64,000 nucleotides of DNA from Gammaproteobacteria bacterium (lineage in GTDB: Bacteria; Pseudomonadota; Gammaproteobacteria; Eutrophobiales; Eutrophobiaceae). The DNA lies in contig CBDEUK010000002.1 in the NCBI GenBank assembly GCA_965243205.1, positions 480,001 through 544,000 of the forward strand, written 5' to 3'. Numbering within the stretch: position 1 is the stretch's first letter; the number at the start of each line of letters is the position of its first letter. The position numbers and the translations under genes are program-made. A model generated the notes under the pieces. It was not told the DNA's origin, searched no databases, and worked only from the letters and a program-made list of their open reading frames with translations. Below are positions 12,508 through 60,158 of this stretch, in pieces.

Positions 12508-12520
12508 AATTTTTCTCCCA

Positions 12521-13797: not shown

Positions 13798-13799
13798 AT

Positions 13800-15272: not shown

Positions 15273-15289
15273 TCAGACGCCTTTATTAT

Positions 15290-15475: not shown

Positions 15476-15553
15476 CAGCATCATCGCATATGAGCTGGTA
15501 TGTCTATGATTCATATAAATTAATTACAACATACGATTTGGGAAAAGAAGTAA

Positions 15554-16468: not shown

Positions 16469-16480
16469 TAGAGAGTTATT

Positions 16481-17203: not shown

Positions 17204-17211
17204 GATTAATT

Positions 17212-18616: not shown

Positions 18617-18703
18617 ATTATCAATTTTCTTTTTTGTAATTATTTAAATTATCTATAAGTTTGTAGATAATGCTCATCTTTATAATATTTCTAATAAAAA
18701 ATC

Positions 18704-31451: not shown

Positions 31452-31456
31452 ATATT

Positions 31457-31861: not shown

Positions 31862-31873
31862 GTAAATATTCCA

Positions 31874-40385: not shown

Positions 40386-40400
40386 AACCTTTTACTTGTA

Positions 40401-41522: not shown

Positions 41523-41523
41523 G

Positions 41524-42981
41524 TTATTGATCTTTATTTATTCTTAATTCTATAAGTTTTGAAACAAGTCGTTTTATATTCACTTGGTCAAATACTGGAT
41601 ATTGAACGACTGATTGTAATTCACCAACTGCTAAAACTTCCTCTACGGTTAGTTTAATCAATGATTGCTGTAAATTAATACGTTCTAATTCTGCACGTAA
41701 AAACTCTAATCGATCAATTGCACCCAACTCATATTGAGTTTGAATTATCTCATGTCTTTGATGAAATTGGTCTAATAAATCAAGTGCTATTTTTCTCGCA
41801 ACAACACGTAAATTAAAATCATTTAATCGATATTGAATTTGATTAAGCATTTTAGTTTGCATAGAAATAATTTGTTGTTGTTGTTTTTCTCTAACCTTCA
41901 TCGCTTTATCAATTGCTGGTTCATTGTTATGCAATAAAGGTAAAATCCAACTTAATCCTAAGGAAAGTATTTGATCGCCTTGATCATAAACAAACCCAGG
42001 TGACAAATTAACATCAGGGTATTGCTGTTCGATTTGTAATTTTAATTCTGCTTCGTTTCTCAAATAAGTTTGTAATGCTATTAAAAAATCTGTGCGTTGA
42101 TGAATTGCGGCTTCTTTTAAATCTTGTTCTGATAAATCAAAACTTGTATAAAATTCCAAATCTAATGTGAAAAAGAGTTCTGTAATATCCAAGGCTCTTT
42201 TATCAACACCTATCAAAGTCAATATCGTATGATATGCCTGATGCATGTTTCTAATATATTGAGTCTGCTCCAATAATTCACGTTGCAGACTTAATCGCGC
42301 TGTTGAGATTTCAAAGTTACTTGCTTCACCAAACTCTCGACGTTTTAATAATAAATCTACTACTTCAGCTTTTATTTCAATTTCTTTTTTTAAAATATTC
42401 AACTGGTATTTATTAAGATAAAATTCCCAATAAGCTCGATAAAGATTTAAATATAATTCCCATGCCTTATTTTCTATCTGCAATTTTGATTGCTGTATAT
42501 TTGCTTCAGCGATTAAGGTTTTTGCATCGCGCTTACCTTGGCGTTCGTAAAAGAAGCTTTTAACTAATCCAATTGTCCAGGGTGAAAAGCCATCAAATAT
42601 TTCGCTGTGATATTCAAGAGGAATTTGTATGGTGGGATTGGTACGTGTTAATGCAACAATTTTTTGAGACTCTTGTATTGGGATGTCTTGAATCAAGGTT
42701 TGTATTTCAGGGTTGAAATACAACATAGATACCGTTAAAAAATCTAAATCTTTATTATCAATATTGAAACTTGCTATTTCAGATTGGATAATTTTTTGGA
42801 ATGACTCATCACTGAATGCTTTATCATCTATTTGATGATAAATATCATCCGTATCTATCGGCTCAGCGATATATTCTTGCTTAGTACACGATACTAAAAC
42901 AAACACAATCACTAAAATGAATGGTATTAGACATGAAGTGAGTTTGCTTGAGCTTTTGTTATTATAGTGTTTAATATTCAA
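41524..42981 (-). CDS. TolC/CzcC-family outer-membrane factor (lipoprotein)
   Basis: LVSC lipobox, ERQGKR and QYPDVNLSPG; first gene of the RND operon; exact start uncertain. Confidence 0.85.
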   Translation of the reverse strand: MNIKHYNNKSSSKLTSCLIPFILVIVFVLVSCTKQEYIAEPIDTDDIYHQIDDKAFSDESFQKIIQSEIASFNIDNKDLDFLTVSMLYFNPEIQTLIQDIPIQESQKIVALTRTNPTIQIPLEYHSEIFDGFSPWTIGLVKSFFYERQGKRDAKTLIAEANIQQSKLQIENKAWELYLNLYRAYWEFYLNKYQLNILKKEIEIKAEVVDLLLKRREFGEASNFEISTARLSLQRELLEQTQYIRNMHQAYHTILTLIGVDKRALDITELFFTLDLEFYTSFDLSEQDLKEAAIHQRTDFLIALQTYLRNEAELKLQIEQQYPDVNLSPGFVYDQGDQILSLGLSWILPLLHNNEPAIDKAMKVREKQQQQIISMQTKMLNQIQYRLNDFNLRVVARKIALDLLDQFHQRHEIIQTQYELGAIDRLEFLRAELERINLQQSLIKLTVEEVLAVGELQSVVQYPVFDQVNIKRLVSKLIELRINKDQ

Positions 42982-44359: not shown

Positions 44360-45700
44360 ATGACCAATAAAACAATACCAGAAAATTTACACAAAGTTGT
44401 CATTGTCGGTGGTGGTGCTGCTGGCCTAGAACTGGCAACAAAGCTAGGTAAAAAATTCGGCAAAAAGAAAAAAGCACAGATCATGTTGATCGATTCTGTT
44501 CGCACACATCTCTGGAAACCTTTATTACACGAAGTAGCCGCTGGTAGTTTGAACTCATATGGCGATGAAACCGGATATATGGTTCACGCACATGTTAACC
44601 ACTTCTTATTTCGTTTAGGCAAAGCAATCAAAGTTGATCGAGAAAAACAGTTGGTCATCACTGCCCCTCAAGTCGATGAAGATGGCAATGAATACATTCC
44701 TTCACGTTCTTTCGAATACGATACTCTTATTCTAGCCGTCGGCAGTGTTACAAATGATTTTGGCATTAAGGGTGTAAAAGAACATTGCTACTTCCTAGAT
44801 AGTCGTGAGCAAGCAGATAAATTTCACCAAGATTTACTGAAATCCGCCTATATCGCACATACACAGGAAACTCCATTAAAAGAGGGCCAATTGCACGTTG
44901 CTATCGCTGGTGCAGGCGCAACTGGTGTTGAACTTGCCGCGGAATTACATGAATCAATCCGTGAATTAGCCACGATGGGTCTAAATCGGTTTGACCCTGA
45001 AAACGATATTGAGATCCATATCATTGAAGCTGCGGATCGTATCTTACCTGGCCTGCCAGAGCGGTTATCCGCACAAACTGCAAAAACTCTGGAAAAGCTA
45101 AATGTTCAACTACATACCAGTGAGCGTGTGAGCGAAGCTACTAAAGAAGGTTTTAAAACAGAAAGTGGCGAGTTGATCCCCGCTGAGATAAAAGTTTGGG
45201 CTGCAGGTATTAAGGCCCCTGAATTTCTGGCCGAGATAGATGGACTAGAAACCAATAGAATAAATCAATTATCAGTACATAAAACCTTACAAACTACCAA
45301 TGACGAAAACATTTTCGCGATGGGCGATTGTGCAGCCTGCCCTATGGAAGATGGGAAATTTGTTCCGCCAAGAGCTCAAGCTGCCCACCAACAAGCATCT
45401 TTATTATATAAATCAATCAAATACCGTCTAGCCGGTAAAGATAAGATGCCTGAATACAAGTATGTAGATTATGGCTCATTGATCAATTTAAGTAGTTATA
45501 CCACTGTAGGCAGTTTAATGGGAACCGTCTCGCGCAAATTCTCGAGTCGGGTGTTTATTGAAGGTGTCATTGCTCGCTTTGTATATTGGTCATTGTATAA
45601 AATGCACCTCATGGCGATACACGGTTTCATTCGCACAACCTTCATGACGATTGCCAACTTTTTAACAATGAAAACCAAACCAAGAACAAAACTGCACTAG
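44360..45700 (+). CDS. ndh: Type II NADH dehydrogenase
   Basis: VVIVGGGAAG, HLWKPLLHEVAAG, GAGATGVELAAEL and VPPRAQAAHQQA. Confidence 0.93.
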   Translation: MTNKTIPENLHKVVIVGGGAAGLELATKLGKKFGKKKKAQIMLIDSVRTHLWKPLLHEVAAGSLNSYGDETGYMVHAHVNHFLFRLGKAIKVDREKQLVITAPQVDEDGNEYIPSRSFEYDTLILAVGSVTNDFGIKGVKEHCYFLDSREQADKFHQDLLKSAYIAHTQETPLKEGQLHVAIAGAGATGVELAAELHESIRELATMGLNRFDPENDIEIHIIEAADRILPGLPERLSAQTAKTLEKLNVQLHTSERVSEATKEGFKTESGELIPAEIKVWAAGIKAPEFLAEIDGLETNRINQLSVHKTLQTTNDENIFAMGDCAACPMEDGKFVPPRAQAAHQQASLLYKSIKYRLAGKDKMPEYKYVDYGSLINLSSYTTVGSLMGTVSRKFSSRVFIEGVIARFVYWSLYKMHLMAIHGFIRTTFMTIANFLTMKTKPRTKLH

Positions 45701-45964
45701 ATAACATCTAAATACAATGCGTACCCCTTAAGAAGTTTCCGTTTTCTGGAACGTAAACAGGGATGTTTACTTATAGGAATTATTTTTGATTTCTATACTG
45801 CCTGAATTTCTCATAATTTATTCATAAATGTCTTGATATAGATTTATTTTTGCTAACTGATTGAATAACATACTCTTTTAGCTGTTTAAGCAGATGCACA
45901 ACCGTTTTGTAAAAGATTAAATCGCTATTATTTGTAATAACAATTGATTGGAGCTCTACAAAAA

Positions 45965-45979
45965 CAGGAATTCCTCCTA
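45965..45979. promoter_or_regulatory. GGA-N5-TCC palindromic box upstream of the TonB-dependent receptor
   Basis: CAGGAATTCCTCCTA, about 90 nt before the ATG; similar boxes at 50718, 53371, 60011 and 60033. Confidence 0.5.
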
Positions 45980-46064
45980 AAATATAAAGTAATAATAATC
46001 CAAAAAACCTAATAAAAACCTATAATTACTAGTGTTTTTGAACTTATTTTGTTAACTTAACAAG

Positions 46065-49000
46065 ATGAGTTTGTTTCATTGCTTAAAAACGATAATTATC
46101 GGTTCGATGGTCGTGGCCATATGTCCTGCGTCTGCGAACCGAGAACTTGCTAATCATCTCCATGATGATTTTCTAGAGCAATCGATTCAATTCAAGCTAA
46201 TGAACCCTCATCGCCGATTTGTTGACCAATCTGCACTATTCAAAATTGATCCTCAGAGGAACTTCCTATTAGCTCAGGTAGACGACCTCGATATTGACTT
46301 TGGAGAGTATGGAGAAGAAGAAGCGTTAGAAGAGTTTGAGGAAGAATACCAAGAAGAAATTGAAGCATTAGAGCAAACTGAACCTGAAATAATAGAACCA
46401 GTAGAAGAAATCGTCGAGCAAGAACCTCTCGTAGGGCCTGAGGAAGTAACTACGTCTACAACAGAAGAAGAGGTGTTTGCAGATGATACAAGTGAAATAA
46501 TCATTGATGATGAACAGGAGACAATTCTAGAAGAGGCACCCACCAATGAAGTTGTCGATGACGGTACTATTTTCATTGACCCTACAGAAGAAACTGCTCC
46601 TATTGAATTTGAAGAAGAACTTGTAGATGAAGCAGATGAGCTTATCGAGGAGATACCTGAAGAAGTTGCGGATGATGAAACTTCCCCTGAGATCCTCGAA
46701 GTCGATGATGTTGAAGTAATTGGTGAACCATTTAAACTCATCACTCCCTTACCGGGCGTCGACTTCGACGAAGACCAAATCTCGACCAATATCCAAACTG
46801 CTACTGGAGAAGACATAAAGAAATCCGGTGCCATCAATGCAACGCAGTTTCTCAATGAACAACTGCAATCGATCACAGTCAGTGATAACTCAGGTAATCC
46901 ATTCCAACAAGACGTTAATTTCCGCGGCTTTTCTGCCTCTCCTCTAATTGCAACACCACAAGGTCTCTCCATCTATATCGATGGAGTTCGAGTTAATGAA
47001 TCCTTTGGCGATGTCGTCAATTGGGATCTAATCCCATTAAATGCCATCGATTCGGTAGCGTTAGTCCCAGGAGCAACACCGCTCTTTGGTCTGAACACCA
47101 TCGCAGGCGCTTTAACCCTGTCGACCAAGACAGGATTTTCTTCACCAGGAGTTGATGCAGCCGCTCGCTACGGAAGTTGGAATCGACGCCAACGTGAACT
47201 CACAATTGGAGGAAATAATGGGTTAGTAGGTGCATTTGTGGCCTACAATCGGGTACAAGAAGATGGCTGGCGTAATAATTCCCCATCAGACGTAGAACAA
47301 ATATTTGGTCGTGCTGATGTTACAACCGACATGCTTAATTTAAGCTTTTCAGGACTAGCTGCTGATAATTCCTTAGTAGGTAATGGTACTGTCCCATTTA
47401 GTGATTTTGAAATCGATCCTGAACAAATTTACACATCACCGGATATAACAAATAACTCAGTCAATCACTTTAATATGACAGCTACTTTGACCCCTAACGA
47501 TAATACTTCTATATCAGCCCTTGCTTACCATCGTGGGGTTAATCAGACTACAATTGGTGGTGATTTCTGGGATGATTTTGAACGAGCGGTCGACGGTCGT
47601 CTGGGCTACTTTTGCGATAGATTTGCTGCTCCTGGTCAACCAGCCAATGGAGCTGGAACAGGTGATCCAGGCGTTCCTGGTTGTTATCCGAATGGTGTTT
47701 TAAATCAAGGCGGGTTAGAACAGGATACCTATGGTGCTTCACTACAACTAAACTGGGTTACCGAGCGTAATCAAGCCGTTTTTGGAGCTACGTTTGATAA
47801 ATACAACGTTGAATTTAGTCAGAGTCAATTATTAGGCTTCATTGAATCGGATCGCAGTGTCGTAGCTGACCCGACGCGCTTAGTAGGAGCAAATCTCATA
47901 GGCGCTCCGTTTTTTGATGACCCTCAAGTTTTTATTAATCTTTGCGTCTTATCCGGACAAACACTTGCAACATGTCAAGAGCTCTCAAGGCAGGATGAGC
48001 TCGGTCGCATCAACTTTGCAGCAGAAAATCCCATTCTACGAAACCGTGTTAAGGGCGTAGGAACCAACGCTGCCTTCTTTTTATACGATGCTTTCAATGT
48101 TACACCTAAGCTCACAACAACTTTGGGACTAAGGTACAACCGCACTCGTGTACAAAACCAGGTGCAGGCGGATGCACCTACTCCCCTTTGGACATTTGAT
48201 CGAGCCACATTCGAAAATACAATATTGCAGTGCCGTCTCGATCCAACCGATCTAGTTAGTCGTTTGCAATGTACTTCAGAGGACATTGTATTTAAGTCTT
48301 GGAACCCAGCCCTCGGTATAACCTATGCCTTAAATGAATCCACAAGTACATTCGCCAACGTTAGTGTAGGAACGCGTACTCCATCTGCTATAGAACTCGC
48401 ATGTGCACGTCCTGCAGATGAAGATATCCAACAAGGGCTTATCGTTGGTTGTACGATTCCGACAAACTTTACGGCTGATCCACCCCTAGAACAAGTTCGA
48501 TCTACTTCTTATGAGATTGGCACACGAATGCAGTTTAATAATGGAATTGATGCCAATCTGGCTTTTTTCCGAACGGACCTTAAAAATGATATCTTATTTT
48601 TATCGCTTGGCCGTGGTAATCGTGGAGTATTTGATAACTTTGGTGAAACTCGTCGCCAAGGTCTAGAATTGGGTCTTTCGGGTGACCATGGCCGTTTTAA
48701 TTGGTTTCTTAACTATACCTATCTCAAAGCAACCTTTGAATCAGAAGCAACCGTAGTTAATTCCTCAAATAGCACCGCGGCCAGAGGATTCAATGCGATA
48801 AACGAATTTACAGTGGACATAGGTGATGAAATTCCTGGCGTTCCTAATCATGCTATTCGAGCCGGGGTTGAATTTGCATTCACACCAAAATTCAGTCTAG
48901 GGCTGAATTTGATCGCACAAAGCGACTCGTTCGCCCGTGGTAACGAGAATAATGAACATCAAGCGGTCGGTAATGATGAATTCAGCAATGGTCAGTCTTC

Positions 49001-49361
49001 ATCAGGACCCTGTGCCCCCAATATTCAATTACCAGGCGGAGCTTGTTTTGAGGGCGGTCGACCGTTCATTGGAAGTGGCAGCATCAAAGCTTTTTGGATT
49101 CTGAATCTTGATGCCACATACCGTCCTACTAAACGACTGACGGTTTCATTAGCAGTTGATAATCTATTTGACAAAAGGTTTGCAACCGCAGGCAATCTGG
49201 GTTTTTCACCCTTTCAATCAGATTCTGTAAACTTCCCTGGTGCAGTGGATGCAGCTGGATTCAACTTCAATTCCTTCAACTGGAAACACGACCTCTTTGT
49301 CGGCCCAGGCGCCCCGAGGGCTGCCTGGTTGAGCTTGCGCTATACCTGGGATGGTTGGTAA
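46065..49361 (+). CDS. TonB-dependent receptor, LutH/LanA-like, with an acidic N-terminal extension
   Basis: TonB-box-like EVDDVEVIG; plug motif GNPFQQDVNFRGFSASPLIATPQGLSIYIDGVRVNESFGDVVNWDLIP; ELACA...CTIP.NF.ADPPLEQV; C-terminal PGAPRAAWLSLRYTW. The family link is from recalled motif similarity. Confidence 0.85.
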   Translation: MSLFHCLKTIIIGSMVVAICPASANRELANHLHDDFLEQSIQFKLMNPHRRFVDQSALFKIDPQRNFLLAQVDDLDIDFGEYGEEEALEEFEEEYQEEIEALEQTEPEIIEPVEEIVEQEPLVGPEEVTTSTTEEEVFADDTSEIIIDDEQETILEEAPTNEVVDDGTIFIDPTEETAPIEFEEELVDEADELIEEIPEEVADDETSPEILEVDDVEVIGEPFKLITPLPGVDFDEDQISTNIQTATGEDIKKSGAINATQFLNEQLQSITVSDNSGNPFQQDVNFRGFSASPLIATPQGLSIYIDGVRVNESFGDVVNWDLIPLNAIDSVALVPGATPLFGLNTIAGALTLSTKTGFSSPGVDAAARYGSWNRRQRELTIGGNNGLVGAFVAYNRVQEDGWRNNSPSDVEQIFGRADVTTDMLNLSFSGLAADNSLVGNGTVPFSDFEIDPEQIYTSPDITNNSVNHFNMTATLTPNDNTSISALAYHRGVNQTTIGGDFWDDFERAVDGRLGYFCDRFAAPGQPANGAGTGDPGVPGCYPNGVLNQGGLEQDTYGASLQLNWVTERNQAVFGATFDKYNVEFSQSQLLGFIESDRSVVADPTRLVGANLIGAPFFDDPQVFINLCVLSGQTLATCQELSRQDELGRINFAAENPILRNRVKGVGTNAAFFLYDAFNVTPKLTTTLGLRYNRTRVQNQVQADAPTPLWTFDRATFENTILQCRLDPTDLVSRLQCTSEDIVFKSWNPALGITYALNESTSTFANVSVGTRTPSAIELACARPADEDIQQGLIVGCTIPTNFTADPPLEQVRSTSYEIGTRMQFNNGIDANLAFFRTDLKNDILFLSLGRGNRGVFDNFGETRRQGLELGLSGDHGRFNWFLNYTYLKATFESEATVVNSSNSTAARGFNAINEFTVDIGDEIPGVPNHAIRAGVEFAFTPKFSLGLNLIAQSDSFARGNENNEHQAVGNDEFSNGQSSSGPCAPNIQLPGGACFEGGRPFIGSGSIKAFWILNLDATYRPTKRLTVSLAVDNLFDKRFATAGNLGFSPFQSDSVNFPGAVDAAGFNFNSFNWKHDLFVGPGAPRAAWLSLRYTWDGW

Positions 49362-49380
49362 AAATATCAAAAAAGAATTA

Positions 49381-50453
49381 AAAAGAAAGCCCCTTTAGTG
49401 GGGCTTTCTGAATCTTGAATTAGTAACTGTTTGTTACTTTGTAGGTTTTATTAAGGAAAGGCAGAACTTTTTCTTACTAAACCGCTTTAAACCGAGCGGC
49501 TCCAACCCCGATAACCCCAAGTGCTACAGCCAAACCGAGAATTCCCAACCATGGTAAAGGAACCTGTTCAGTATTGCTGCTACATTCTACTGAGACAAAA
49601 CCCGGTAAGAAAATAGAAACCTGAGTTTGTCCCTCCTCGCCAGCTTGATTAAGTTCTAGAGAATTTGGCTGCTCTTCATAACATTCAGCCGTAGTCTTCA
49701 AATGAAAATACATAGAGGTAGGATTAAGTTCACTAACGTTAAGATCCGTTTGAAACCGCACCACATCTGGGTCAAAAGGTGTGGCACCCCCAAGGGTTTT
49801 AGCCGTAGTCCGTGCTACGTTATATAATCTTAAGCCTCCCTCACGTCGCTCCGAGCTCGCGGCTTGCACAGTGTAACCATCGTTTCCAGAACGTAGAATA
49901 TAATTGAATTCAGATTCGTTTACGACCGCACCAGCACCTTCAGGAAGGGTTGGTTCAAGGTCTACTCGCAAAGATAACACCAATGAATTATCCGTAGTAT
50001 CCGTAAAAACACTATCCGTAATAGTACCGACGGTGACTGGTCCAGTCGCTGGATCAGACAATCCAAGTACTTGCGACCGATCTAGGACAAGGTCGCGTAC
50101 TTTTTCTTCAACTAAGGTAAGACGCTCAGGGGCATCGAAAATATCGAGCGTAGTCGTACCCACCACCACATCATCAATGTCAGGTCCGTTACAATCGAGA
50201 TTCGCGTTGGTGATGAACAGTCGATTTATACCGCTGATTGGAACTCCTGGATTACCGCTGGAAATGTTTTCGCAATCCAGGGCATAAAACACATCTGACG
50301 TAAGTTGCGCAACACCATCAACTCGCGTTCCGTCACTGGGAATGTCACAATAACCAGTTGCTAATTTGATATTGTTGTCAGTGCTAGTGCAATCTTTTGC
50401 TTGTACTCCAGATGCTATTAACATGAGCGAAATAATAATGATGCTGTATTTCA
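49381..50453 (-). repeat. Copy 1 of a ~1.07-kb direct duplication (gene, 3' region and terminator)
   Basis: Near-identical to 50883-51955 at an offset of 1502 bp. Confidence 0.97.
49384..49409. terminator. Terminator between the receptor and anchored-protein copy 1
   Basis: AGAAAGCCCC-TTTAGT-GGGGCTTTCT. Confidence 0.8.
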
Positions 50454-50472
50454 AACTTGGTGCTTTATACAC
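49477..50472 (-). CDS. Exported acidic protein with C-terminal VPLP-TM-basic (exosortase-type) anchor, copy 1
   Basis: Signal peptide ending VQA; six Cys; C-terminus EQVPLPWLGILGLAVALGVIGVGAARFKAV; GTG start after AGAGG. Confidence 0.8.
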   Translation of the reverse strand: MYKAPSLKYSIIIISLMLIASGVQAKDCTSTDNNIKLATGYCDIPSDGTRVDGVAQLTSDVFYALDCENISSGNPGVPISGINRLFITNANLDCNGPDIDDVVVGTTTLDIFDAPERLTLVEEKVRDLVLDRSQVLGLSDPATGPVTVGTITDSVFTDTTDNSLVLSLRVDLEPTLPEGAGAVVNESEFNYILRSGNDGYTVQAASSERREGGLRLYNVARTTAKTLGGATPFDPDVVRFQTDLNVSELNPTSMYFHLKTTAECYEEQPNSLELNQAGEEGQTQVSIFLPGFVSVECSSNTEQVPLPWLGILGLAVALGVIGVGAARFKAV

Positions 50473-50626
50473 AATTTTATACCTCTTCTGAACGATACTC
50501 TCTTTTTCAATATAGTAAGGAGTCTGAGTAACTCCTACAAATTAGCTTCTAACCTCTCATTCACGTTAGAGATCAGTTACAATAAGAGACTTGAAATTGT
50601 TCTGTCCATAAATCTAATTTGTGTCG

Positions 50627-50728
50627 TGACGAGTCGCTTATTATTCAATGATTAATTTGTAGAACAAACTAATTAGTTTAATCCCAATTTTATTATTAGT
50701 TATACATAATTTGTTAGGGATATCTTCC
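50627..50728 (-). promoter_or_regulatory. Conserved upstream module shared with the 52400-53239 gene
   Basis: TGACGAGTCGCTT (50627-50639) and GTTAGGGATATCTTCC (50713-50728), both identical to 53281-53293 and 53366-53381. Confidence 0.75.
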
Positions 50729-50882
50729 TGCTTATTTATTATGTAACACAATTTTCATATTTTGAACTGCTCTAGAAAAATTATATTTTTCATCTATATT
50801 ATTGAGATCACAGGGTTACCAAAGGCAAAACCACTTTGCTGAATAGCCAAACCCATTGATAAGGTTATGGATGGGAATAATA

Positions 50883-51955
50883 AAAAGAAAGCCCCAGAAT
50901 TGGGGCTTTCTGGATCTTAAATTAGTAACTGTTTGTTACTTTGTAGGTTTTATTAAGGAAAGGCAGAACTTTTTCTTACTAAACCGCTTTAAACCGAGCG
51001 GCTCCAACCCCGATAACCCCAAGTGCTACAGCCAAACCGAGAATTCCCAACCATGGTAAAGGAACCTGTTCAGTATTGCTGCTACATTCTACTGAGACAA
51101 AACCCGGTAAGAAAATAGAAACCTGGGGTTGCCCCTCCTCGCCAGCTTGATTGATCTCTAGAGCATTCGGCTGCTCTTCATAACATTCAGCCGTAGTCTT
51201 CAAATGAAAATACCTTGAGGTAGGATTAAGTTCACTAACGTTGATATCCGTTTGAAACCGCACCACATCTGGGTCAAAAGGTGTGGCACCCCCAAGGGTT
51301 TTAGCCGTAGTCCGTGCTACGTTATATAATCTATTTCCTCCCTCACGTCGCTCCGAGCTCGCGGCTTGCACAGTGTAACCATCGTTTCCAGAACGTAGAA
51401 TATAATTGAATTCAGATTCGTTTACGACCGCACCAGCACCTTCAGGAAGGGTTGGTTCAAGGTCTACTCGCAAAGATAACACCAATGAATTATCCGTAGT
51501 ATCCGTAAAAACACTATCCGTAATAGTACCGACGGTGACTGGTCCAGTCGCTGGATCAGACAATCCAAGTACTTGCGACCGATCTAGGACAAGGTCGCGT
51601 ACTTTTTCTTCAACTAAGGTAAGACGCTCAGGGGCATCGAAAATATCGAGCGTAGTCGTACCCACCACCACATCATCAATGTCAGGTCCGTTACAATCGA
51701 GATTCGCGTTGGTGATGAACAGTCGATTTATACCGCTGATTGGAACTCCTGGATTACCGCTGGAAATGTTTTCGCAATCCAGGGCATAAAAGGGATCTGA
51801 TGTAATTTGTGCAACACCATCAACTCGCGTTCCGTCACTGGGAATGTCACAATAACCAGTTGCTAATTTGATATTGTTGTCAGTGCTAGTGCAATCTTTT
51901 GCTTGTATTCCAGATGTTATAAGCATGAGCGAAATAATAATGATGCCATGTTTCA
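50883..51955 (-). repeat. Copy 2 of the ~1.07-kb direct duplication
   Basis: Near-identical to 49381-50453. Confidence 0.97.
50886..50911 (-). terminator. Terminator of anchored-protein copy 2
   Basis: AGAAAGCCCC-AGAATT-GGGGCTTTCT; same stem as 49384 with a different loop. Confidence 0.8.
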
Positions 51956-51956
51956 T
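50979..51956 (-). CDS. Exported acidic protein with C-terminal VPLP-TM-basic anchor, copy 2
   Basis: Mature part differs from copy 1 at eight residues; same C-terminal anchor. Confidence 0.8.
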   Translation of the reverse strand: MKHGIIIISLMLITSGIQAKDCTSTDNNIKLATGYCDIPSDGTRVDGVAQITSDPFYALDCENISSGNPGVPISGINRLFITNANLDCNGPDIDDVVVGTTTLDIFDAPERLTLVEEKVRDLVLDRSQVLGLSDPATGPVTVGTITDSVFTDTTDNSLVLSLRVDLEPTLPEGAGAVVNESEFNYILRSGNDGYTVQAASSERREGGNRLYNVARTTAKTLGGATPFDPDVVRFQTDINVSELNPTSRYFHLKTTAECYEEQPNALEINQAGEEGQPQVSIFLPGFVSVECSSNTEQVPLPWLGILGLAVALGVIGVGAARFKAV

Positions 51957-52197
51957 AATTAACTTATTCCTATTCTGTGAGATGCTTTTTTATAAAGTAT
52001 GTAAATTAATTTATTGGCTGAAATTAAATCACAAATGGTTTTTTCAAGTAATCTTCTTGAGTAAGATTTTGAACATAAAGGACTGATTTAATTAGATATT
52101 TAGGATATGTTAACTATTGAAATAGGATTATTTCACTGCTTTATGGAAAACGTTTTAAATTGCATCCTCCTTATTATCTGTGATCTATTAGATCAAA

Positions 52198-52220
52198 AAA
52201 GGGGCCTGAACGGCCCCTTT
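52198..52220 (-). terminator. Rho-independent terminator (second of two downstream of the 52400 gene)
   Basis: AAAGGGGCC-TGAAC-GGCCCCTTT with an A tract on the left. Confidence 0.7.
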
Positions 52221-52344
52221 GAATTAACTTCTATTTAATTTTAGGTATGAGTTTACTAGGTTCCACTTTTTAGAGATAAAGACTAAACAAAAGAGAGGTG
52301 TCTTAGCTATTGATGTACTGTCGCTATGCGACCGTGTGCATAAA

Positions 52345-52379
52345 AAAACCTCGAATGCACAATGTGCAGTCGAGGTTTT
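52345..52379 (-). terminator. Rho-independent terminator of the 52400-53239 gene
   Basis: AAAACCTCGA-a-TGCAC-AAT-GTGCA-g-TCGAGGTTTT. Confidence 0.8.
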
Positions 52380-52399
52380 AAAGTAAAAAATTTAAGCAA

Positions 52400-53239
52400 T
52401 TAAGATTTTTTACGAATGCCTACCATTCCAATCAAAGCAGAACCTAATAACCATACTGCAGCTGGCACAGGAACTGGAGCAAAAGATTGTAGGTTATCAC
52501 CAAAAATATAGTTCTGGAATCGATCTTCACTAGGGTCAAATTCAGAGAAGAGCGTCAATGCACCAGTGATTTGGGTATAGTCGGTCGCATCAGTAGCAAC
52601 GAGATGCCATACAGAGTAAGGGTTATCTTCTTCGCCACTCATGTCATTAACGAAAGTCACAAGATTTGAGTCTTTGCTTACTTCGTCGAAAACACGATCG
52701 ATACCACTTTGGGCAAAATATGCTGCTTCTGTTGAAACCGATGAAGCGTATTGTCGTCTGACTTCATTGAATTCACCTTCGTATTCAAATAAGCCTGAAC
52801 CACCTGGGCCATCATCTAATTCCGGGAAGAGCGTAACTCGTGTAGCAAATACTAGAGTGTTATCAGAATTATTACGCCAGACCTGATCTGTAAGAATTCC
52901 AATCTCTTCAAGTTCACCATCTTCAGGAAATGTGATCTCATATTCATTTTCATCGATTATGGTGTAGCCTGCAGGAAGTAGAAATCCATTTGTACTGCGA
53001 GTGAAAAATTCTTCTTCTGGTGCCTCACCGAAGGTACCGAAACCCGGATCCACGGCTGCTGGTGCATCACCGCCTAGGACAAAACCTTGATCAGGTCCTA
53101 GACCGCTACCAATGATCTGGAAATCAGGACCACCAGTACTAAGAAAACTATCACCGTTGTTAAGATTTTGAAACGCCGCATTAGCGCTACTTGATGTAAT
53201 TAATGCTAGAACAGATATAATGAGAGACTTAGAATTCAT
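52400..53239 (-). CDS. Highly acidic exported protein with VPLPA-CTERM-type sorting signal; distant homologue of the duplicated pair
   Basis: Signal peptide ending ANA; C-terminus APVPVPAAVWLLGSALIGMVGIRKKS; GGAGG RBS. Confidence 0.85.
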   Translation of the reverse strand: MNSKSLIISVLALITSSSANAAFQNLNNGDSFLSTGGPDFQIIGSGLGPDQGFVLGGDAPAAVDPGFGTFGEAPEEEFFTRSTNGFLLPAGYTIIDENEYEITFPEDGELEEIGILTDQVWRNNSDNTLVFATRVTLFPELDDGPGGSGLFEYEGEFNEVRRQYASSVSTEAAYFAQSGIDRVFDEVSKDSNLVTFVNDMSGEEDNPYSVWHLVATDATDYTQITGALTLFSEFDPSEDRFQNYIFGDNLQSFAPVPVPAAVWLLGSALIGMVGIRKKS

Positions 53240-53280
53240 GTCTCTACCCTCCTAATTTAATTGTGTGAAGACTTGTATCT

Positions 53281-53381
53281 TGACGAGTCGCTTGTTATAA
53301 AAAATATATTTTTGAACGCCTTACGCCGTCAGAATGTTGACTATATCATTTCATAATTATAATTCGTTAGGGATATCTTCC
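53281..53381 (-). promoter_or_regulatory. Conserved upstream module shared with copy 1
   Basis: TGACGAGTCGCTT plus GTTAGGGATATCTTCC at 85-bp spacing (86 bp at copy 1); a -10-like TATAAC abuts the first block on the minus strand. Confidence 0.75.
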
Positions 53382-53503
53382 CGGTTTTTATTAAATATCC
53401 CCTTTTTATTTAGCAAATTAGAATTTTTTTAACTATTTAATAATATGTTTTTTTAGCCTTTTCTTGTTGTATTCTCGCTTTTTCTTTTCGATCTTAACTG
53501 AGA

Positions 53504-54931
53504 TTAAAGATTGTATTTCTTCATTCGATATCGCAAAGCCATACGTGTTATACCTAATTCTCTTGCGGCCTTTGAGACATTACCATTAGTTTTTTCTAAA
53601 GCTTGTTTAATCATATTTAATTCAGCTTCGCTTAGTGTTAAATCATCTTTGGTTTCTTCCATAACAACTGCTTGTTTAGGTTTATTCACTAAAGCTAATT
53701 GTTCAGAAGTAATTTCTTCACCACCACTTAATAGTACTGCACGTTCAATCAAATGCTTCATTTCTCGAATGTTACCTGGCCACTCATAATTTAAAATCGA
53801 GTCTTTTGCATCATCATTAAACTCTGGTGTTTCTAAAGCATAACGTTTAGCAGTTTGAGCAGCGAAATGATTGGCTAATATCATCGCATCATTACCGCGT
53901 TCTCGTAATGGTGGTAAGGTAATACTTAAAACATTCAATCGATAAAATAAATCTGAACGAAATTCACCACTCTCCGATAACGATTCAATATCTCGATTGG
54001 TTGCAGCGACAAACCAAGCTTGTACTGGAATTTCCTGTGTTGAACCTACTTTACGCATACTACGGCGTTCTAATACTGCTAATAATTTACCTTGTAGGTC
54101 CAAAGGCAATTCACCAATCTCATCGATGAATAACACGCCATCTTCAGCTGCTTCTATTAAACCCGTTCTAGCTACATGTGCATTGGTAAACGCACCTTTT
54201 TCATGGCCAAATAATTCCGCTTCAATCAAATCTTTTGGTAATGAGGCACAGTCCATATGTACAAATGGTTTTTGCATTCTTGCACTTTTAGAATGTAGAA
54301 CACGTGCTAACACATCTTTACCTGTACCTGTTTCTCCTAGTATTAATACTGTAGGAGGAACAGCATCAGCATTCATTGTAAGCTGGGCAATACGTTCAAC
54401 TTGTTTTTTAACATCTTTAATCGCTTTACAGTTACCAAGAAAATCAATCGTATTTGCTGAATGTTCAACAGCATGTTGTTCGCGCTTACTTGAGTAAGTT
54501 AATTTTTGTTCTGTCTCCTGTCGTCTCATAACTTTCTCGACATTCAACATAAGCTCATCAAGATCGACTGGTTTCTTAAGATAATCAGAAGCTCCTAATT
54601 TCATTGCTTGTACTGCGTCTTCAATTTCACCATAAGCAGACATTACAATCACAGCAGCATTAGAATCGTATTTATTTCTAACATCGGTTAAAAAATCCAG
54701 GCCTGAGCCATCAGGTAATCTCATATCAAGTAAAATTAAATCTGGAGAAAACGCTTTGAATTTTTCATGAGCTGTTTCTATATCGCCTGCAATTTCGCTA
54801 TTAAATCCAGAGCGTGTTATACGTTTATTAACTGCTTTTGCTAAAATGGTTTCATCTTCAACGATTAATACTTTATGTTCTATGACTGGTATTTCAGTTG
54901 CAGGCACATAGTTATCAAAAAAGTCTGTCAT
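53504..54931 (-). CDS. Sigma54-dependent response regulator (REC-AAA+-Fis)
   Basis: IVEDE, LLDMRLPDG, GETGTGKD, ELFGHEKGAFTNA, FRSDLFYRL and C-terminal HTH. Confidence 0.95.
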   Translation of the reverse strand: MTDFFDNYVPATEIPVIEHKVLIVEDETILAKAVNKRITRSGFNSEIAGDIETAHEKFKAFSPDLILLDMRLPDGSGLDFLTDVRNKYDSNAAVIVMSAYGEIEDAVQAMKLGASDYLKKPVDLDELMLNVEKVMRRQETEQKLTYSSKREQHAVEHSANTIDFLGNCKAIKDVKKQVERIAQLTMNADAVPPTVLILGETGTGKDVLARVLHSKSARMQKPFVHMDCASLPKDLIEAELFGHEKGAFTNAHVARTGLIEAAEDGVLFIDEIGELPLDLQGKLLAVLERRSMRKVGSTQEIPVQAWFVAATNRDIESLSESGEFRSDLFYRLNVLSITLPPLRERGNDAMILANHFAAQTAKRYALETPEFNDDAKDSILNYEWPGNIREMKHLIERAVLLSGGEEITSEQLALVNKPKQAVVMEETKDDLTLSEAELNMIKQALEKTNGNVSKAARELGITRMALRYRMKKYNL

Positions 54932-54945
54932 AATTATTGATCTAA

Positions 54946-56403
54946 TTAATTGGTTGTATTTGGAATGGTAATCGTTATATCAGTACCGATACCTTCATTG
55001 ATTTCAAAATTCAAATCCCAACCATGGGTTTGACAAATTTTAAAAGCAATCGGAATACCTAAGCCAGTACCAAAACGTTTCGTCGTAGGGCCTGGCTCTA
55101 AATTTCTTGGTTCAGGTTTAAATGGTAAACCTCCACCTTCATCTATGATGGATAAGATAAGATTTTGTTCTCGTTGTATGAAACCGATTTTTAACCTGGC
55201 ATTTTTAGGTGATGCATCAACGGCATTAGCAAGTAAACCATACAATGCTTGCTCCATTAAATCTGGGTCAACAAGTACTGTAGTTGAGTCATCCCAATCC
55301 AGTTGTTCAAGTTCGATTTGTTTTTCTTCTAATTTTGTTTTTAATACCGCTAGAGTTGAGTTTAATAAGTCGCTGACTTTATGTTGTCGCTTATTTGGTT
55401 TTAAAGGATGTAAATACGATACTAAGGAATTAACCCACCGCCCTAACCTATCTATTGTTTCAATTATCGCTTCACTACTTTCTTTTAATTCTTCTTTATC
55501 ATCAGCATCATCTAACACTTGTGCAGTTGCTCTAATCGCAGCCAAAGGATTTCGAATATTATGTGCGACAACTGGCACTAGTGCGCCTAGAGCCGCTTGT
55601 TTTTCACTTTGAACTAAAGCATCACGACTGGTTTCAAGATCGCTTGCCATTTGATTAATCGTTGCCGCTAATTCAGAAACTTCTTCAACGCCTTTTTCAG
55701 GAATGGAATGAGATAAATCACCAGCTTTGATTTTATGGGCACCATCCATAATATTGGTCATGGGTTTCATAAAACCACGTTTTAAAAAGTTTCGTGCAAA
55801 GACAACTAAAATTAAAGCAATGATTAATGGGATTGGAATGATTAACGGTGCATAAGTCGACCAGCGTTTGAGTGTATTATCTAAAACATCATGCTGTTGA
55901 TCTAATAATTTACGAAATTCTAAATATCGGTTTTCAAATTTATCGACCATGCTTTCAGCAAATCGCGGATCGAGAATTTTCATCCGAACCCGTAAATCTG
56001 AAATATACGGGTCGGTAAAGATTTTATTCATATCTTTTTGAATTTCACGATAGGACTCTTGCAAATCTTGAATCGCTTCATTTTCCTCACGAGAATCAGC
56101 AGTATTTCTTAGATTATTAAATTGCTTATCGATAAGACGTGAATATTCTGCATATACATCAAGTGACTTAGAGTCCTCTAAAACTCTGACTCGAATCGCA
56201 GCCTGGATTTGTCGAAACAAAGAACTTCGCACCTGCTCAGTCACAGATTTCAACTCATTAATACGTACCGATTCAGCCGAATTTTTTTGCCAGAAATAGG
56301 CAGACATACCACCAATGATCCCTGTTACAGCGACTAACAATAAGAACGCAATCTCATGGATTAAAAGTAGATTGCTCAGTGATTTAGGTCGTTTAGCAAG
56401 CAT
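54946..56403 (-). CDS. HAMP sensor histidine kinase (NtrB-like)
   Basis: Two TM helices with a periplasmic helical domain, HAMP, VAHNIRNPL, NAVDAS, DEGGG and GTGLG. Confidence 0.93.
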   Translation of the reverse strand: MLAKRPKSLSNLLLIHEIAFLLLVAVTGIIGGMSAYFWQKNSAESVRINELKSVTEQVRSSLFRQIQAAIRVRVLEDSKSLDVYAEYSRLIDKQFNNLRNTADSREENEAIQDLQESYREIQKDMNKIFTDPYISDLRVRMKILDPRFAESMVDKFENRYLEFRKLLDQQHDVLDNTLKRWSTYAPLIIPIPLIIALILVVFARNFLKRGFMKPMTNIMDGAHKIKAGDLSHSIPEKGVEEVSELAATINQMASDLETSRDALVQSEKQAALGALVPVVAHNIRNPLAAIRATAQVLDDADDKEELKESSEAIIETIDRLGRWVNSLVSYLHPLKPNKRQHKVSDLLNSTLAVLKTKLEEKQIELEQLDWDDSTTVLVDPDLMEQALYGLLANAVDASPKNARLKIGFIQREQNLILSIIDEGGGLPFKPEPRNLEPGPTTKRFGTGLGIPIAFKICQTHGWDLNFEINEGIGTDITITIPNTTN

Positions 56404-56430
56404 TATTCAGCCAGTATACTCTATTAGATA

Positions 56431-56468
56431 TGGTTCATATAGACCAATTTCATGGTTATTCATAACCA
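56431..56468. promoter_or_regulatory. Tandem TGGT-N8-ACCA enhancer-like boxes between the kinase gene and pqqA
   Basis: TGGTTCATATAGACCA (56431-56446) and TGGTTATTCATAACCA (56453-56468). Confidence 0.65.
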
Positions 56469-56589
56469 TTTATCTTCAATGAAACACTGTAAAACATTGA
56501 ATTATGAATAGTTATTATTTAAATAAAAACAACGTAAGCAACTGTTTTTAAAATACTTTTATGTAAAATATTTTTGTTGTCTATATCAC

Positions 56590-56605
56590 TGGCATACAAA
56601 CTGCT
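56590..56605 (+). promoter_or_regulatory. Sigma54 (-24/-12) promoter of pqqA
   Basis: TGGCATACAAACTGCT with canonical spacing, about 80 nt upstream of pqqA. Confidence 0.7.
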
Positions 56606-56687
56606 GATGTAGGTATGTACTGTCATTAAGTACATCTGGGAAACCAGATTGAACCTTATCTTTTAACATTAACGAGGAGAACTCATC

Positions 56688-56762
56688 ATGAAATGGGAAA
56701 CACCTGCTTACAGTGATATCCGTTTTGGTTTTGAAGTTACCATGTACATCAACAACAAATAA
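56688..56762 (+). CDS. pqqA: PQQ precursor peptide (24 aa; absent from the ORF track)
   Basis: MKWETPAYSDIRFGFEVTMYINNK with E-x-x-x-Y motif; GAGGAG RBS; terminator directly downstream. Confidence 0.97.
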   Translation: MKWETPAYSDIRFGFEVTMYINNK

Positions 56763-56790
56763 TTGTTGAGGTAGCTTACAGCTAAAACAC

Positions 56791-56813
56791 GGGGCTGTAA
56801 CAGCCCCTTTTTT
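56791..56813 (+). terminator. pqqA terminator
   Basis: GGGGCTG-TAA-CAGCCCC followed by a T tract. Confidence 0.88.
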
Positions 56814-56869
56814 GTCGAAGTTCTTTTCAAACGCTTAATTCATCAGACACAAACAAATCCTCCTCATAT

Positions 56870-56904
56870 AGGAGCCATTGAAACATATTCAATGGCTCCT
56901 TTTT
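56870..56904 (+). terminator. Second terminator-like hairpin after pqqA
   Basis: AGGAGCCATTGAA-ACATA-TTCAATGGCTCCT followed by TTTT. Confidence 0.65.
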
Positions 56905-56993
56905 ATTTCATAACATTTATCGAAACTCGGGAATTATTCCTTTGTGCAAACATTCATTATTCATTTAGTCTTAAAATAAAAATGAATATATTC

Positions 56994-57713
56994 ATGAAAC
57001 TATCTGCATTTAAATTTTTATTACCGATTACACCTTTATTCCTTATTCAGGCTTGCTCTGAACAACCTTCGAATCTATTTTTTCCTTCAGAAAAAGGCAT
57101 TACTTGGACTTATAATGTTGAACAACTAACGATGACCGAACCTGTTTTTTATCGAATGATGTTTACTAATCTTGGTAAAAAAAAGATTGACGATCAATCT
57201 TTCTATATACGTAAGTTACATAATAATAGTTTTCAATATTTTAATGATGACGACTCCGGTTTCTATGAATTAATAAAAAACCAAGAAACTAAAACAGAAC
57301 ATAAAAAGTATCTATTTAAATATCCATTAAAAATGACCACAACATGGAAAGCTGAAGGCGATCCTTTTTTAATGCGTCGCTCAATAGATGAAATTAATGC
57401 ACAACAAAACTCTATGCCGGGTTTAAGTCAGGATTCACCTTTAAAGATGGAATACAAGATCGCTAGTATGAGTGATTCTGTAAAAGTACCTGCGGGAAAA
57501 TTCAAAGGCTGTATGAAAGTCGTTGGTAAAGGAAACTGTTCTTTCTCCAGTACTGGCAGCTTTGCTCGTAAAATGATTGTTGAAGTCATTAATAACGAAT
57601 GGTATTGCCCTGAAGTTGGATTAGTAAAAATTGATCGTAGGGAATCCAGTGAGCGTGTCTCATTGAAACCTGTTCACTATGTTATCGAACTAGAAAAAAT
57701 ATCTCACCAATAA
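56994..57713 (+). CDS. Hypothetical lipoprotein
   Basis: MKLSAFKF...LIQAC lipobox; VKVPAGKFKGC and WYCPEVGLVK pattern typical of a secreted beta-rich family; the ORF-track start at 56892 lies inside a hairpin. Confidence 0.7.
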   Translation: MKLSAFKFLLPITPLFLIQACSEQPSNLFFPSEKGITWTYNVEQLTMTEPVFYRMMFTNLGKKKIDDQSFYIRKLHNNSFQYFNDDDSGFYELIKNQETKTEHKKYLFKYPLKMTTTWKAEGDPFLMRRSIDEINAQQNSMPGLSQDSPLKMEYKIASMSDSVKVPAGKFKGCMKVVGKGNCSFSSTGSFARKMIVEVINNEWYCPEVGLVKIDRRESSERVSLKPVHYVIELEKISHQ

Positions 57714-57714
57714 A

Positions 57715-57738
57715 AAACCCCGACCGAAGTCGGGGTTT
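57715..57738. terminator. Bidirectional terminator (xoxF / lipoprotein)
   Basis: AAACCCCGAC-CGAA-GTCGGGGTTT with an A tract on the left. Confidence 0.88.
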
Positions 57739-57779
57739 CTAGTCTTATAGGAACATAACTGCTCCTTAAACTAAGTTGC

Positions 57780-59765: not shown

Positions 59766-60008
59766 AACCTCCTCCTCTCTTGGTGTTATTGAATAATTAA
59801 TGAATGTTTAGCCTCTATATCACTACATCATTTCCCCTGAGGCCATTAGGAAAACTCATGTCTGAACTATGGCCTCTTTCGGTACCTATAAACAAAATGA
59901 CTTAATACATGCTGTTTAATGCAACGAAATCTAGAGGAGGCAATATACAGATTCGATAATACTTGCTTACCGAATCAATAATTTAGGATGGATAAGTGAA
60001 TATAGATA

Positions 60009-60045
60009 TAGGACTACTTCCCATCTAACCTAGGAAATACTCCGT
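60009..60045. promoter_or_regulatory. Tandem GGA-N5-TCC boxes upstream of xoxF
   Basis: TAGGACTACTTCCCA (60009-60023) and TAGGAAATACTCCGT (60031-60045), 22 bp apart. Confidence 0.55.
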
Positions 60046-60158
60046 TTAAACATTATGATTTTAATTACATTTTAATTGTGAATTTTTCCCAAAGATAAAA
60101 TGTAGTGTAGCTATTTAGGTTTAAGGAATAGTTTTTGATTAATTATCAAACAATCAGG

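Follow-up and report, generated by a model that had tools for sequence, protein, structure and literature searches.

A TonB-dependent receptor with two types of putatively sorted partner proteins: a candidate lanthanide acquisition module of methylotrophic bacteria

Introduction

In the HasA/HasR, TbpB/TbpA and SusD/SusC systems, a surface or extracellular protein delivers its substrate to a TonB-dependent transporter encoded beside it. Here we describe a locus which recalls that arrangement and which occupies positions 46065-53381 of a 64,000-nucleotide stretch from a Gammaproteobacteria bacterium (positions 480,001 to 544,000 of contig CBDEUK010000002.1, assembly GCA_965243205.1; this whole stretch is called the window). 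It consists of a gene for a TonB-dependent receptor and of three genes for exported proteins, which we call A, B and C. Two kinds of described system lie close to it. In Methylorubrum and Methylobacterium, the TonB receptor LutH is linked to XoxF-type dehydrogenases, and an accessory lanthanide-binding protein, lanmodulin, is encoded adjacently together with the lut cluster (PMC11845868, PMC9988556, PMC12482762). In the gammaproteobacterial methanotroph Methylotuvimicrobium buryatense, the TonB-dependent receptor LanA is described as necessary for the lanthanide switch (cited in PMC12482762, PMC8788690 and PMC9988556); LanA-like transcripts are reported from Methylomonas and Methylotenera, and both genera hold relatives of the window receptor. 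The second kind is represented by ZepA (All3515) of Anabaena sp. PCC 7120, a PEP-CTERM exoprotein that is described as binding zinc and mediating zinc uptake (PMC10957091).

The window has a G+C content of about 35%. Pfam and NCBIfam scans showed that it encodes tetrahydromethanopterin-pathway genes, pqqB, pqqC and pqqE, molybdenum-cofactor genes and an XoxF-type dehydrogenase, and this gene content marks the host as a methylotroph. A first-pass annotation, made from the letters alone, had proposed that A, B and C are surface-displayed lanthanide binders which feed the receptor. The results given below partly support that interpretation.

Results

The receptor gene (46065-49361, forward strand) encodes 1098 amino acids, and its product matches the Pfam models Plug (55.5 bits, cut-off 23.9) and TonB_dep_Rec_b-barrel (149 bits, cut-off 27). 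It converges on the genes for A (49477-50472; 331 amino acids from a GTG start, with an alternative TTG start at 50454), B (50979-51956; 325 amino acids) and C (52400-53239; 279 amino acids), which follow it in this order on the reverse strand. The coordinates and the genes were thus as the first-pass annotation had given them. A bidirectional terminator-like hairpin lies between the receptor and A (49384-49409), and A, B and C each have a terminator-like hairpin of their own at the 3' side, that of B being at 50886-50911 and that of C at 52198-52220 (both on the reverse strand). No tandem repeats were found in the receptor/A/B/C region. All three proteins start with a signal-like N-terminal leader, and their C-termini consist of VP.P followed by a hydrophobic helix and a basic tail (QVPLPWLGILGLAVALGVIGVGAARFKAV in A and B; PVPVPAAVWLLGSALIGMVGIRKKS in C). 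In A, an N-terminal region with four Cys residues is followed by a domain shared by the three proteins and then by the VPLP-helix-RFK tail. We call the part between leader and sorting tail the passenger domain.

The shared domain had been proposed from short alignments, and our comparison bears this out: A and C are 28% identical over 182 amino acids (E=1e-11), and intermediate relatives connect them in an alignment of 20 sequences. A and B are much closer, with 312 of 325 residues identical (96%). At the DNA level only 30 of 978 nucleotides differ, codons 56-206 are identical, and the duplicated segment corresponds to A coordinates 49380-50450. The run of 150 consecutive identical codons indicates that B is a recent tandem duplicate of A. 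The differences between the two copies (13 nonsynonymous and 8 synonymous codons) gather at both ends. The three proteins represent two types, which we call alpha (A and its copy B) and beta (C).

We then looked for the same arrangement in one genome per species of 185,579 species, using one peptide pattern of the family; the pattern is narrow and its result says nothing on absence elsewhere. The scan gave 13 loci, namely six in Methyloversatilis, three in Methylobacillus, one in a Methylomonas metagenome-assembled genome (MAG), two in Gammaproteobacteria MAGs and one in a Burkholderiales MAG. All ten loci with a genus name belong to methylotrophs. In 13 of 13 loci an orthologue of the receptor (38-54% identity, 600-819 bits) lies directly beside the sorted proteins, and this adjacency is kept despite co-directional, divergent and convergent gene orders and varying flanking genes. 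In the betaproteobacteria the order is receptor-alpha-beta. In loci L002, L011 and L013 one partner lies downstream of the receptor and the other is divergent, L001 is divergent, and the window is convergent. Two paralogues are present in 12 of the 13 loci, the remaining one (L001) being a contig of 5.2 kb. A weaker sign of the same link is that 11 contigs of the same size recur in the match lists of receptor and partners, which is a proxy for co-location only. Locus L011 (positions 1-10600 of the Burkholderiales MAG) also has three receptor paralogues in a row, 31-43% identical to the window receptor, and, besides two family partners, an extra PEP-CTERM protein (4850-5812) with no detectable kinship to A or C.

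A quick maximum-likelihood tree of 39 paralogue rows, made with a short search and having several long branches so that deep placements are unsure, separated the partners by type. In Methyloversatilis and Methylobacillus, the paralogues at the first position form one group (Shimodaira-Hasegawa-like approximate likelihood ratio test, SH-aLRT, 98), and those at the second position form another (86). The paralogues downstream of the receptor in L002 and L013 fall together with A and B (94), and C groups with its own type (100). The positional label changes twice on the tree, compared with a mean of 8.6 changes for shuffled labels (0 of 500 shuffles as low).

The receptors gave a corresponding picture. 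In a tree of 37 receptors, the 19 partner-linked ones form one clade (SH-aLRT 100, branch length 0.8), 12 of them having been seen adjoining a partner gene and seven being assigned by an indirect co-location proxy; eight partnerless relatives fall outside. The window receptor is placed within the partner-linked clade (SH-aLRT 100). In the alignment this clade has insertions of its own at amino acids 600-609, 704-735, 786-794 and 1051-1061, which flank or contain the invariant residues Cys723, Cys736, Cys780 and Cys796; the insertion at 786-794 lies between Cys780 and Cys796. These results indicate that the receptor-partner link is not due to chance. That receptor and sorted proteins form a conserved module is supported by the adjacency in every locus together with the single receptor clade. 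We have high confidence that the receptor and the two paralogue types are one functional unit.

In order to see the wider receptor family, we compared the window receptor with 72,556 plasmids and chromids. Twenty-six records matched at E<=1e-20, with identities of no more than 36%, and we examined the genes within 6-7 kb of the receptor relative in 10 of them. In six of these ten, the relative lies near a pyrroloquinoline quinone (PQQ) dehydrogenase with the motif WD[YF]DG, pqq genes or a lanmodulin-like EF-hand protein. Such a dehydrogenase was found in four (Variovorax L015, B. multivorans L017, B. cenocepacia L022 and Ralstonia L024) and pqq genes in four (L017, L021, L022 and L024). A protein with four EF-hands and the motif DPDxDGTxD, which presumably marks lanmodulin, was found in one (M. 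nodulans pMNOD02, L019), where YncE-, SRPBCC- and vWA-family genes are also close. None of these neighbours was present in the other four (Ideonella L016, Caballeronia L018, Methylocalor L020 and M. fujisawaense L023). In L017 and L022 a sigma-54 regulator stands between the receptor and pqqA, as a sigma-54 regulator does in the window. The window receptor and the lanmodulin-adjacent receptor of pMNOD02 are 28% identical over 93% of the barrel (E=2e-69). No relatives of A or C were found in the ten examined records, and A and C had no match in the 72,556 plasmids. These neighbourhoods support, by gene content and homology, the view that the receptor is a member of a family with links to lanthanide biology, as the first-pass annotation had assumed. 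In L023, a plasmid of M. fujisawaense, the receptor relative is split by an IS66 transposase (about 6000-9500).

Among the best 120 homologues of the receptor, the named genera were Methyloversatilis, Methylobacillus, Methylotenera and Methylophilus, and no match named from M. buryatense was among them. In NCBIfam the receptor reached no equivalog, its best matches being generic siderophore-receptor models far below their cut-offs. The nearest solved structures by sequence are those of the PQQ transporter PqqU/YncD, with only 53 bits.

The receptor has a signal peptide (amino acids 1-24), an acidic extension (25-220), the Plug domain (238-349) and the barrel, which runs to the C-terminus. A TonB-box-like segment, LEVDDVEVIG, is recognized by eye at amino acids 211-220; the consensus of the family is EExEVxAxR. 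The extension (window 46137-46724) is a low-complexity stretch of 196 residues with 35.7% Asp plus Glu, compared with 10.7% in the barrel, and no tandem repeat was found in the DNA that encodes it. With the signal peptide on one side and the TonB-box-like motif on the other, it is predicted to be exposed to the periplasm, and it may act there as a cation sink. We considered whether the extension is a conserved feature of the receptor and rejected this, because the closest homologues lack it and have only 22-69 residues there. A subset of more distant homologues has 126-215 residues at that position with 17-26% Asp plus Glu.

The passenger domains of A, B and C are acidic, with isoelectric points of 4.05-4.15. 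Their content of Asp plus Glu is 15.5% in A and B and 18.5% in C, compared with 12.2% in 25 other open reading frames of the window, and C is the most acidic of the three, with a net charge of -35. Each passenger has a single His, and the median His content in the family is 0.41%. The near absence of His and the strong acidity of C had both been noted before, and correctly. The further statement that conserved positions are mostly Asp, Glu or Asn proved too strong: these residues are enriched, being found at six of the 12 near-invariant passenger columns compared with 17% of the other 155 (binomial p=0.009). Conserved residues of this kind in C are D64, D118, E156, N158, D199 and E204. A, B and C gave no Pfam match to EF-hand, which is characteristic of lanmodulin, or to PepSY, which is characteristic of LanP, in agreement with the view that they are unrelated to EF-hand lanmodulin.

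The passenger domain matched no Pfam or NCBIfam model beyond the sorting tails, and its profile gave no match in the PDB at E<=1. A word-seeded search of 5.8 billion clusters returned 17 matches with C and 15 with A as the query, the query itself being counted in both, and a profile search of 1.84 billion representatives returned 126 matches at E<=0.001 and 74 at E<=1e-10. The passenger family is therefore small. The nearest named family is NF038126 (FxDxF PEP-CTERM), which matches 35 of 70 scanned members at E<=0.001 and has no match to A, B or C. When 12 members were checked in detail, seven matched named families and none reached a full-length family cut-off. All seven NF038126 matches were below the 50-bit cut-off, and six of them covered the sorting tail only; the exception, P0070, matched over 106 residues at 46.8 bits. 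Cut-offs were reached only by short sorting-tail models, PEP_CTERM in two of the 12 members and VPLPA-CTERM in one. An Atlas look-up of one homologue led to generic PEP-CTERM clusters. Three members have additional features: P0051 has a thrombospondin type 3 repeat and a dockerin-like calcium-binding segment added at the tail, P0076 has an added MopE-type putative metal-binding motif, and P0033 apparently contains two copies of the family in one prediction of 540 amino acids.

The tails were examined separately. VP.P is present in 61 of 66 aligned family members. Partner tails are of the canonical VPEP type in the betaproteobacteria and mostly VPVPA in the gammaproteobacteria, and the downstream paralogues of L002 and L013 have degenerate tails. 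C is above the cut-off of TIGR03370 VPLPA-CTERM (27.3 compared with 25.35 bits) and below that of Pfam PEP-CTERM (17.2 compared with 20.7). By eye, the tails of A and B consist of VPLP, a helix and RFK; in the 20-sequence alignment they match up with those of their relatives. A sorting signal had been proposed on all three proteins; a model identifies it in C, while in A and B it is recognized by eye only.

Methanol-oxidation or PQQ genes lie near the module in seven of 14 loci, the window being counted. In the Methyloversatilis loci L004-L006 the module is met by convergent pqqE, pqqC and pqqB genes, 55-60% identical to the copies in the window. In the Methylobacillus loci L009, L010 and L012 (positions of about 900-20000) the order is mxaCKLD, with which the mxa operon ends, a pyridoxal phosphate-dependent decarboxylase, a 2-oxoglutarate oxygenase, the receptor, alpha, beta and an exopolysaccharide (EPS) cluster, the last gene of which is Exosortase_EpsH, 8.5 kb from the partners.

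In the window itself, xoxF and pqqA had been placed within about 5 kb of the locus, and the distances from its end are in fact 4.4 and 3.3 kb. The xoxF gene (57780-59765, reverse strand), 8.4 kb downstream of the receptor, encodes a PQQ methanol dehydrogenase of 661 amino acids that matches TIGR03075 at 633 bits (cut-off 480) and has the sequence DEWDYDG. We take the extra Asp of the D-Y-D motif of XoxF to be a lanthanide ligand and to mark lanthanide enzymes. The window enzyme is longer than two related dehydrogenases compared with it (575 and 596 amino acids). A gene for a DUF3108-like exported protein lies between pqqA and xoxF (56892-57713).

The pqqA gene (56688-56762, forward strand; MKWETPAYSDIRFGFEVTMYINNK) is an orphan, 40 kb from pqqBCE, and no pqqA-like open reading frame was found near pqqB. 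It is preceded by a sigma-54-like -24/-12 element (56590-56604, forward strand; TGGCATACAAACTGC) and followed by a terminator-like hairpin (56791-56807, forward strand). A weaker sigma-54-like match, TGGCATAGTTCTAGC, is found at 15460-15474 (forward strand), about 80 nucleotides upstream of pqqB. Divergent from pqqA, and between C and pqqA, is a two-component pair formed by a sigma-54-dependent response regulator (53504-54931, reverse strand) and a HAMP histidine kinase (54946-56403, reverse strand). In Methylobacillus flagellatus, two lanthanum-induced sigma-54 regulators are described, which are encoded next to the receptor Mfla_1253 and next to xoxF, respectively (PMC9988556).

On the other side, 3 kb from the receptor, lies a tripartite efflux system (37302-42981, reverse strand), which consists of a CusA/CzcA-family resistance-nodulation-division (RND) pump (37302-40385), a probable efflux adaptor with no family match (40401-41522) and an outer-membrane factor (41524-42981), all on the reverse strand. 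In an alignment, His567, Tyr617 and Glu663 of the pump occupy the positions of Met573, Met623 and Met672, the copper-binding Met triad of Escherichia coli CusA. The identical three substitutions are described by Hemmann et al. for the lanthanum-induced pump Mfla_1632 (PMC9988556). From these residues, the system is a candidate exporter of lanthanide or lanthanophore. Genes for DUF3450, ExbB, an ExbB-like protein, ExbD and TonB (28827-32551, forward strand) are a candidate energiser of the receptor. No ABC (ATP-binding cassette) system of the LutA/E/F type was found in the window.

A and C have a common upstream module on the reverse strand. That of A (50627-50728) contains GGAAGATATCCCTAAC at 50713-50728 and AAGCGACTCGTCA at 50627-50639, and that of C (53281-53381) contains GGAAGATATCCCTAAC at 53366-53381, TGATATAGTCAAC at 53336-53348 and AAGCGACTCGTCA at 53281-53293. 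Exact copies of GGAAGATATCCCTAAC and AAGCGACTCGTCA are present upstream of A and C only, with a spacing of 71-72 nucleotides in both. The region upstream of B is without these motifs, which were lost in the duplicate; its 5' region differs because the duplicated part leaves out roughly the first eight codons of the gene.

Two exact copies of the 13-mer TGATATAGWCAAC, and no more, are present in the window, one upstream of C (53336-53348, reverse strand) and one abutting the sigma-54-like element of pqqA (56576-56588, reverse strand). These copies, the second of which is in the pqqA/kinase intergenic region, may be a shared operator, or they may have arisen by chance in AT-rich DNA.

Two kinds of control were considered for A, B and C and rejected. 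Sigma-54 control was rejected because no -24/-12 match with two or fewer mismatches was found upstream of them, the sole fitting site being that upstream of pqqA. In Methylophaga GP59, cyclic di-GMP riboswitches are described as preceding pqqA, a receptor and VPLPA/PEP-CTERM genes (PMC12530212). In our case Rfam gave no match, riboswitch or other, at gathering scores in the whole window and only chance-level matches at E<=5 in 45600-60300. The leader RNAs of A and C fold no better than shuffled sequences (z=0.07 and 0.46).

Discussion

The reading that we favor is that the receptor, alpha and beta form a three-component lanthanide acquisition module, and we regard it as plausible, if not quite probable. 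It is the best supported reading because the trio is conserved, the receptors are one clade with insertions of its own, the module is restricted to methylotrophs and the wider receptor family has lanthanide associations. The proposed mechanism is as follows. The partners would be exported by Sec and would carry a PEP-CTERM/VPLPA-CTERM tail for processing by an exosortase, after which they may stay attached to the cell surface or matrix or leave the cell in the manner of a protein metallophore. Alpha and beta would capture the metal outside the inner membrane and hand it to the receptor, as is proposed for ZepA and zinc and as hemophores do with heme. The receptor, a specialised offshoot of the LutH-related family, would import the trivalent lanthanide ion (Ln3+) or a lanthanide complex into the periplasm, where XoxF would be loaded with lanthanide. 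The sigma-54 pair, pqqA, xoxF and the RND pump of the His/Tyr/Glu type may complete a lanthanide island.

A number of observations weigh against this reading. A and B match no Pfam or NCBIfam sorting-signal model at E<=0.01, and no exosortase is encoded within the 64-kb window. The proposed synteny is upheld in one half only: the receptor orthologue is present in all 13 loci outside the window, and XoxF is within 10 kb in none of them. In seven of the 14 loci no methanol-oxidation or PQQ genes lie near the module, although L001 and L003 are too short to tell, and the module of Methylobacillus abuts calcium-type mxa genes and a methanolan-type EPS cluster. The lanmodulin-adjacent receptor of M. 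nodulans is only 28% identical to that of the window and lies outside the partner-linked clade. In the window, the receptor gene runs towards those of A, B and C, and none of their upstream motifs is found before it. Finally, the 90% clusters of the receptor and partners of M. flagellatus A12 include other Methylobacillus species and no member from strain KT, so that the module seems strain-variable in Methylobacillus. The lanthanum response of strain KT is described as running through another receptor, Mfla_1253 (PMC9988556), the neighbourhood of which differs from the module. Because KT has no cluster member and uses Mfla_1253, the module appears dispensable for lanthanide use. Mfla_2030 and Mfla_2031 are not in the lanthanum proteomics table of strain KT (PMC9988556). 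We considered these proteomics data as a test of the module and set them aside, since with a different Mfla_1253 neighbourhood and no KT cluster member they have no bearing on it.

The points on tails and exosortase concern the location of the partners. If A, B and C remained anchored in the inner membrane and faced the periplasm, they would act after the receptor and take Ln3+ from it, like lanmodulin, LanP or LutA. A Sec leader combined with a C-terminal helix and a basic tail is by default a periplasm-facing anchor until an exosortase cleaves it; besides the unmatched tails of A and B and the window without exosortase, 10 of the 13 loci have no exosortase gene within 10 kb, and the very acidic extension of the window receptor would be on the periplasmic side as well. 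Such a location is nevertheless improbable in our judgment, because C is above the VPLPA-CTERM cut-off, VP.P is nearly general in the family, the betaproteobacterial partners have canonical VPEP tails, an exosortase is encoded 8.5 kb away in the Methylobacillus loci, and ZepA, which has the same signals, is described as found outside the cell (PMC10957091).

The points on flanking genes concern the substrate. The module might import something else that a methanol oxidiser needs, such as PQQ, calcium for MxaF, or another metal or chelate, and the partners would then bind that substrate. PQQ is suggested by the likeness, small as it is, to PqqU/YncD and by the pqq genes flanking the Methyloversatilis module, but where pqq genes lie next to the receptor the host produces PQQ itself, and acidic partners nearly free of His suit hard cations and not the PQQ anion. 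Calcium is suggested by the calcium-enzyme mxa genes flanking the Methylobacillus module, and other substrates by unrelated contexts of receptor relatives, of which that in Ideonella has a nickel transporter and MbnP nearby and that in Caballeronia a MacB-like ABC system. On the other hand, relatives stand beside WD[YF]DG-type dehydrogenases and a lanmodulin-like protein, and the window holds the pump type reported as lanthanum-induced. We give a substrate other than lanthanide only a small chance.

A further possibility is that exosortase sorts A, B and C simply as matrix or biofilm proteins of the ordinary kind, found beside the receptor through co-inheritance or a structural role in the envelope. 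This would fit the general tie of PEP-CTERM proteins to exopolysaccharide and floc formation, the EPS/exosortase cluster adjoining the genes in three Methylobacillus loci, the fact that the nearest named families are PEP-CTERM families with no assigned role, and the generic PEP-CTERM clusters of the Atlas. It is nevertheless very unlikely, because one orthologous receptor clade is adjacent in all 13 loci, which belong to several lineages and differ in gene order, no EPS genes were found in the other 10 loci, the receptor insertions are specific to the partner-linked clade, and the family is confined to methylotrophs wherever a genus is named.

We can also word the lanthanide reading more sharply: alpha and beta would be the two subunits of a surface or secreted protein lanthanophore with a new carboxylate-based fold, which would dock on the Cys-containing loops of the LutH-derived receptor clade. 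In this specific form the proposal is speculative, and we think it rather unlikely to hold in full.

If this sharper form is right, alpha and beta would be the first exosortase-sorted proteins known to partner a TonB-dependent transporter, and methylotrophs could use them to mine poorly soluble rare earths. The module bears on the route of the metal to the outer-membrane receptor, above all in methylotrophs that lack lanmodulin, the lut ABC system and the known lanthanophore clusters, as far as the cited reports describe them (PMC9988556, PMC11845868). The receptor with two partners offers concrete candidates in cultivable and harmless genera, for example Methyloversatilis and Methylobacillus, and its passenger domain is possibly a new lanthanide-binding scaffold for rare-earth recovery.

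The sharper form would also explain how exosortase mutations could have broken the lanthanide switch in Methylomonas LW13, a published observation that fits the lanthanide reading in general. A suppressor of an xoxF mutant of this strain is described as having a broken lanthanide switch, a rough biofilm and no mutation in mxaY or mxaB; of its four mutations, one lay inside an exosortase gene and one in intergenic DNA next to a second such gene, which the authors left unexplained in the sections concerned (PMC5874918). In an xoxG suppressor, the gene of an outer-membrane receptor contained a stop codon, which was likewise left unexplained there (PMC5874918).

Comparison with known systems

No description of such a module was found by full-text search in the literature on PEP-CTERM or exosortase in connection with lanthanides or TonB-dependent receptors, subscription journals and bioRxiv supplements being outside the scope of this search. 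The comparison with the systems named at the outset is as follows. The accessory proteins of the window differ from that of the LutH system in that they are not EF-hand proteins and carry sorting tails, and the receptors are a separate clade with insertions of their own. The partners in the HasA, TbpB and SusD systems are lipoproteins or leave the cell by type I secretion, whereas A, B and C are putative exosortase substrates, and the family showed no sequence likeness to HasA, TbpB or SusD (PDB profile search, no matches at E<=1).

The nearest working precedent for A, B and C, by analogy, is ZepA, and the idea in the first-pass annotation that a PEP-CTERM protein may serve metal uptake is thus not without example (PMC10957091). 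ZepA resembles A, B and C in having a Sec signal, a PEP-CTERM tail and a mature size of about 25-35 kDa, and its own role is described as one of metal supply. Its genomic context includes TonB-dependent transporters and other PEP-CTERM proteins, and the authors propose a hand-over to an outer-membrane receptor (PMC10957091). Compared by description, the zinc pocket of ZepA is made of histidine, and A, B and C with one His each do not have such a pocket. Unlike alpha and beta, ZepA is not reported, in the relevant sections of that paper, as occurring in two constant paralogue types that are bound to a single receptor clade. If the lanthanide reading is right, the ZepA idea of protein metallophores would be extended to a second metal. 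What would be new here is a variant that joins two known kinds of component, the receptor of LutH type and the protein metallophore of ZepA type.

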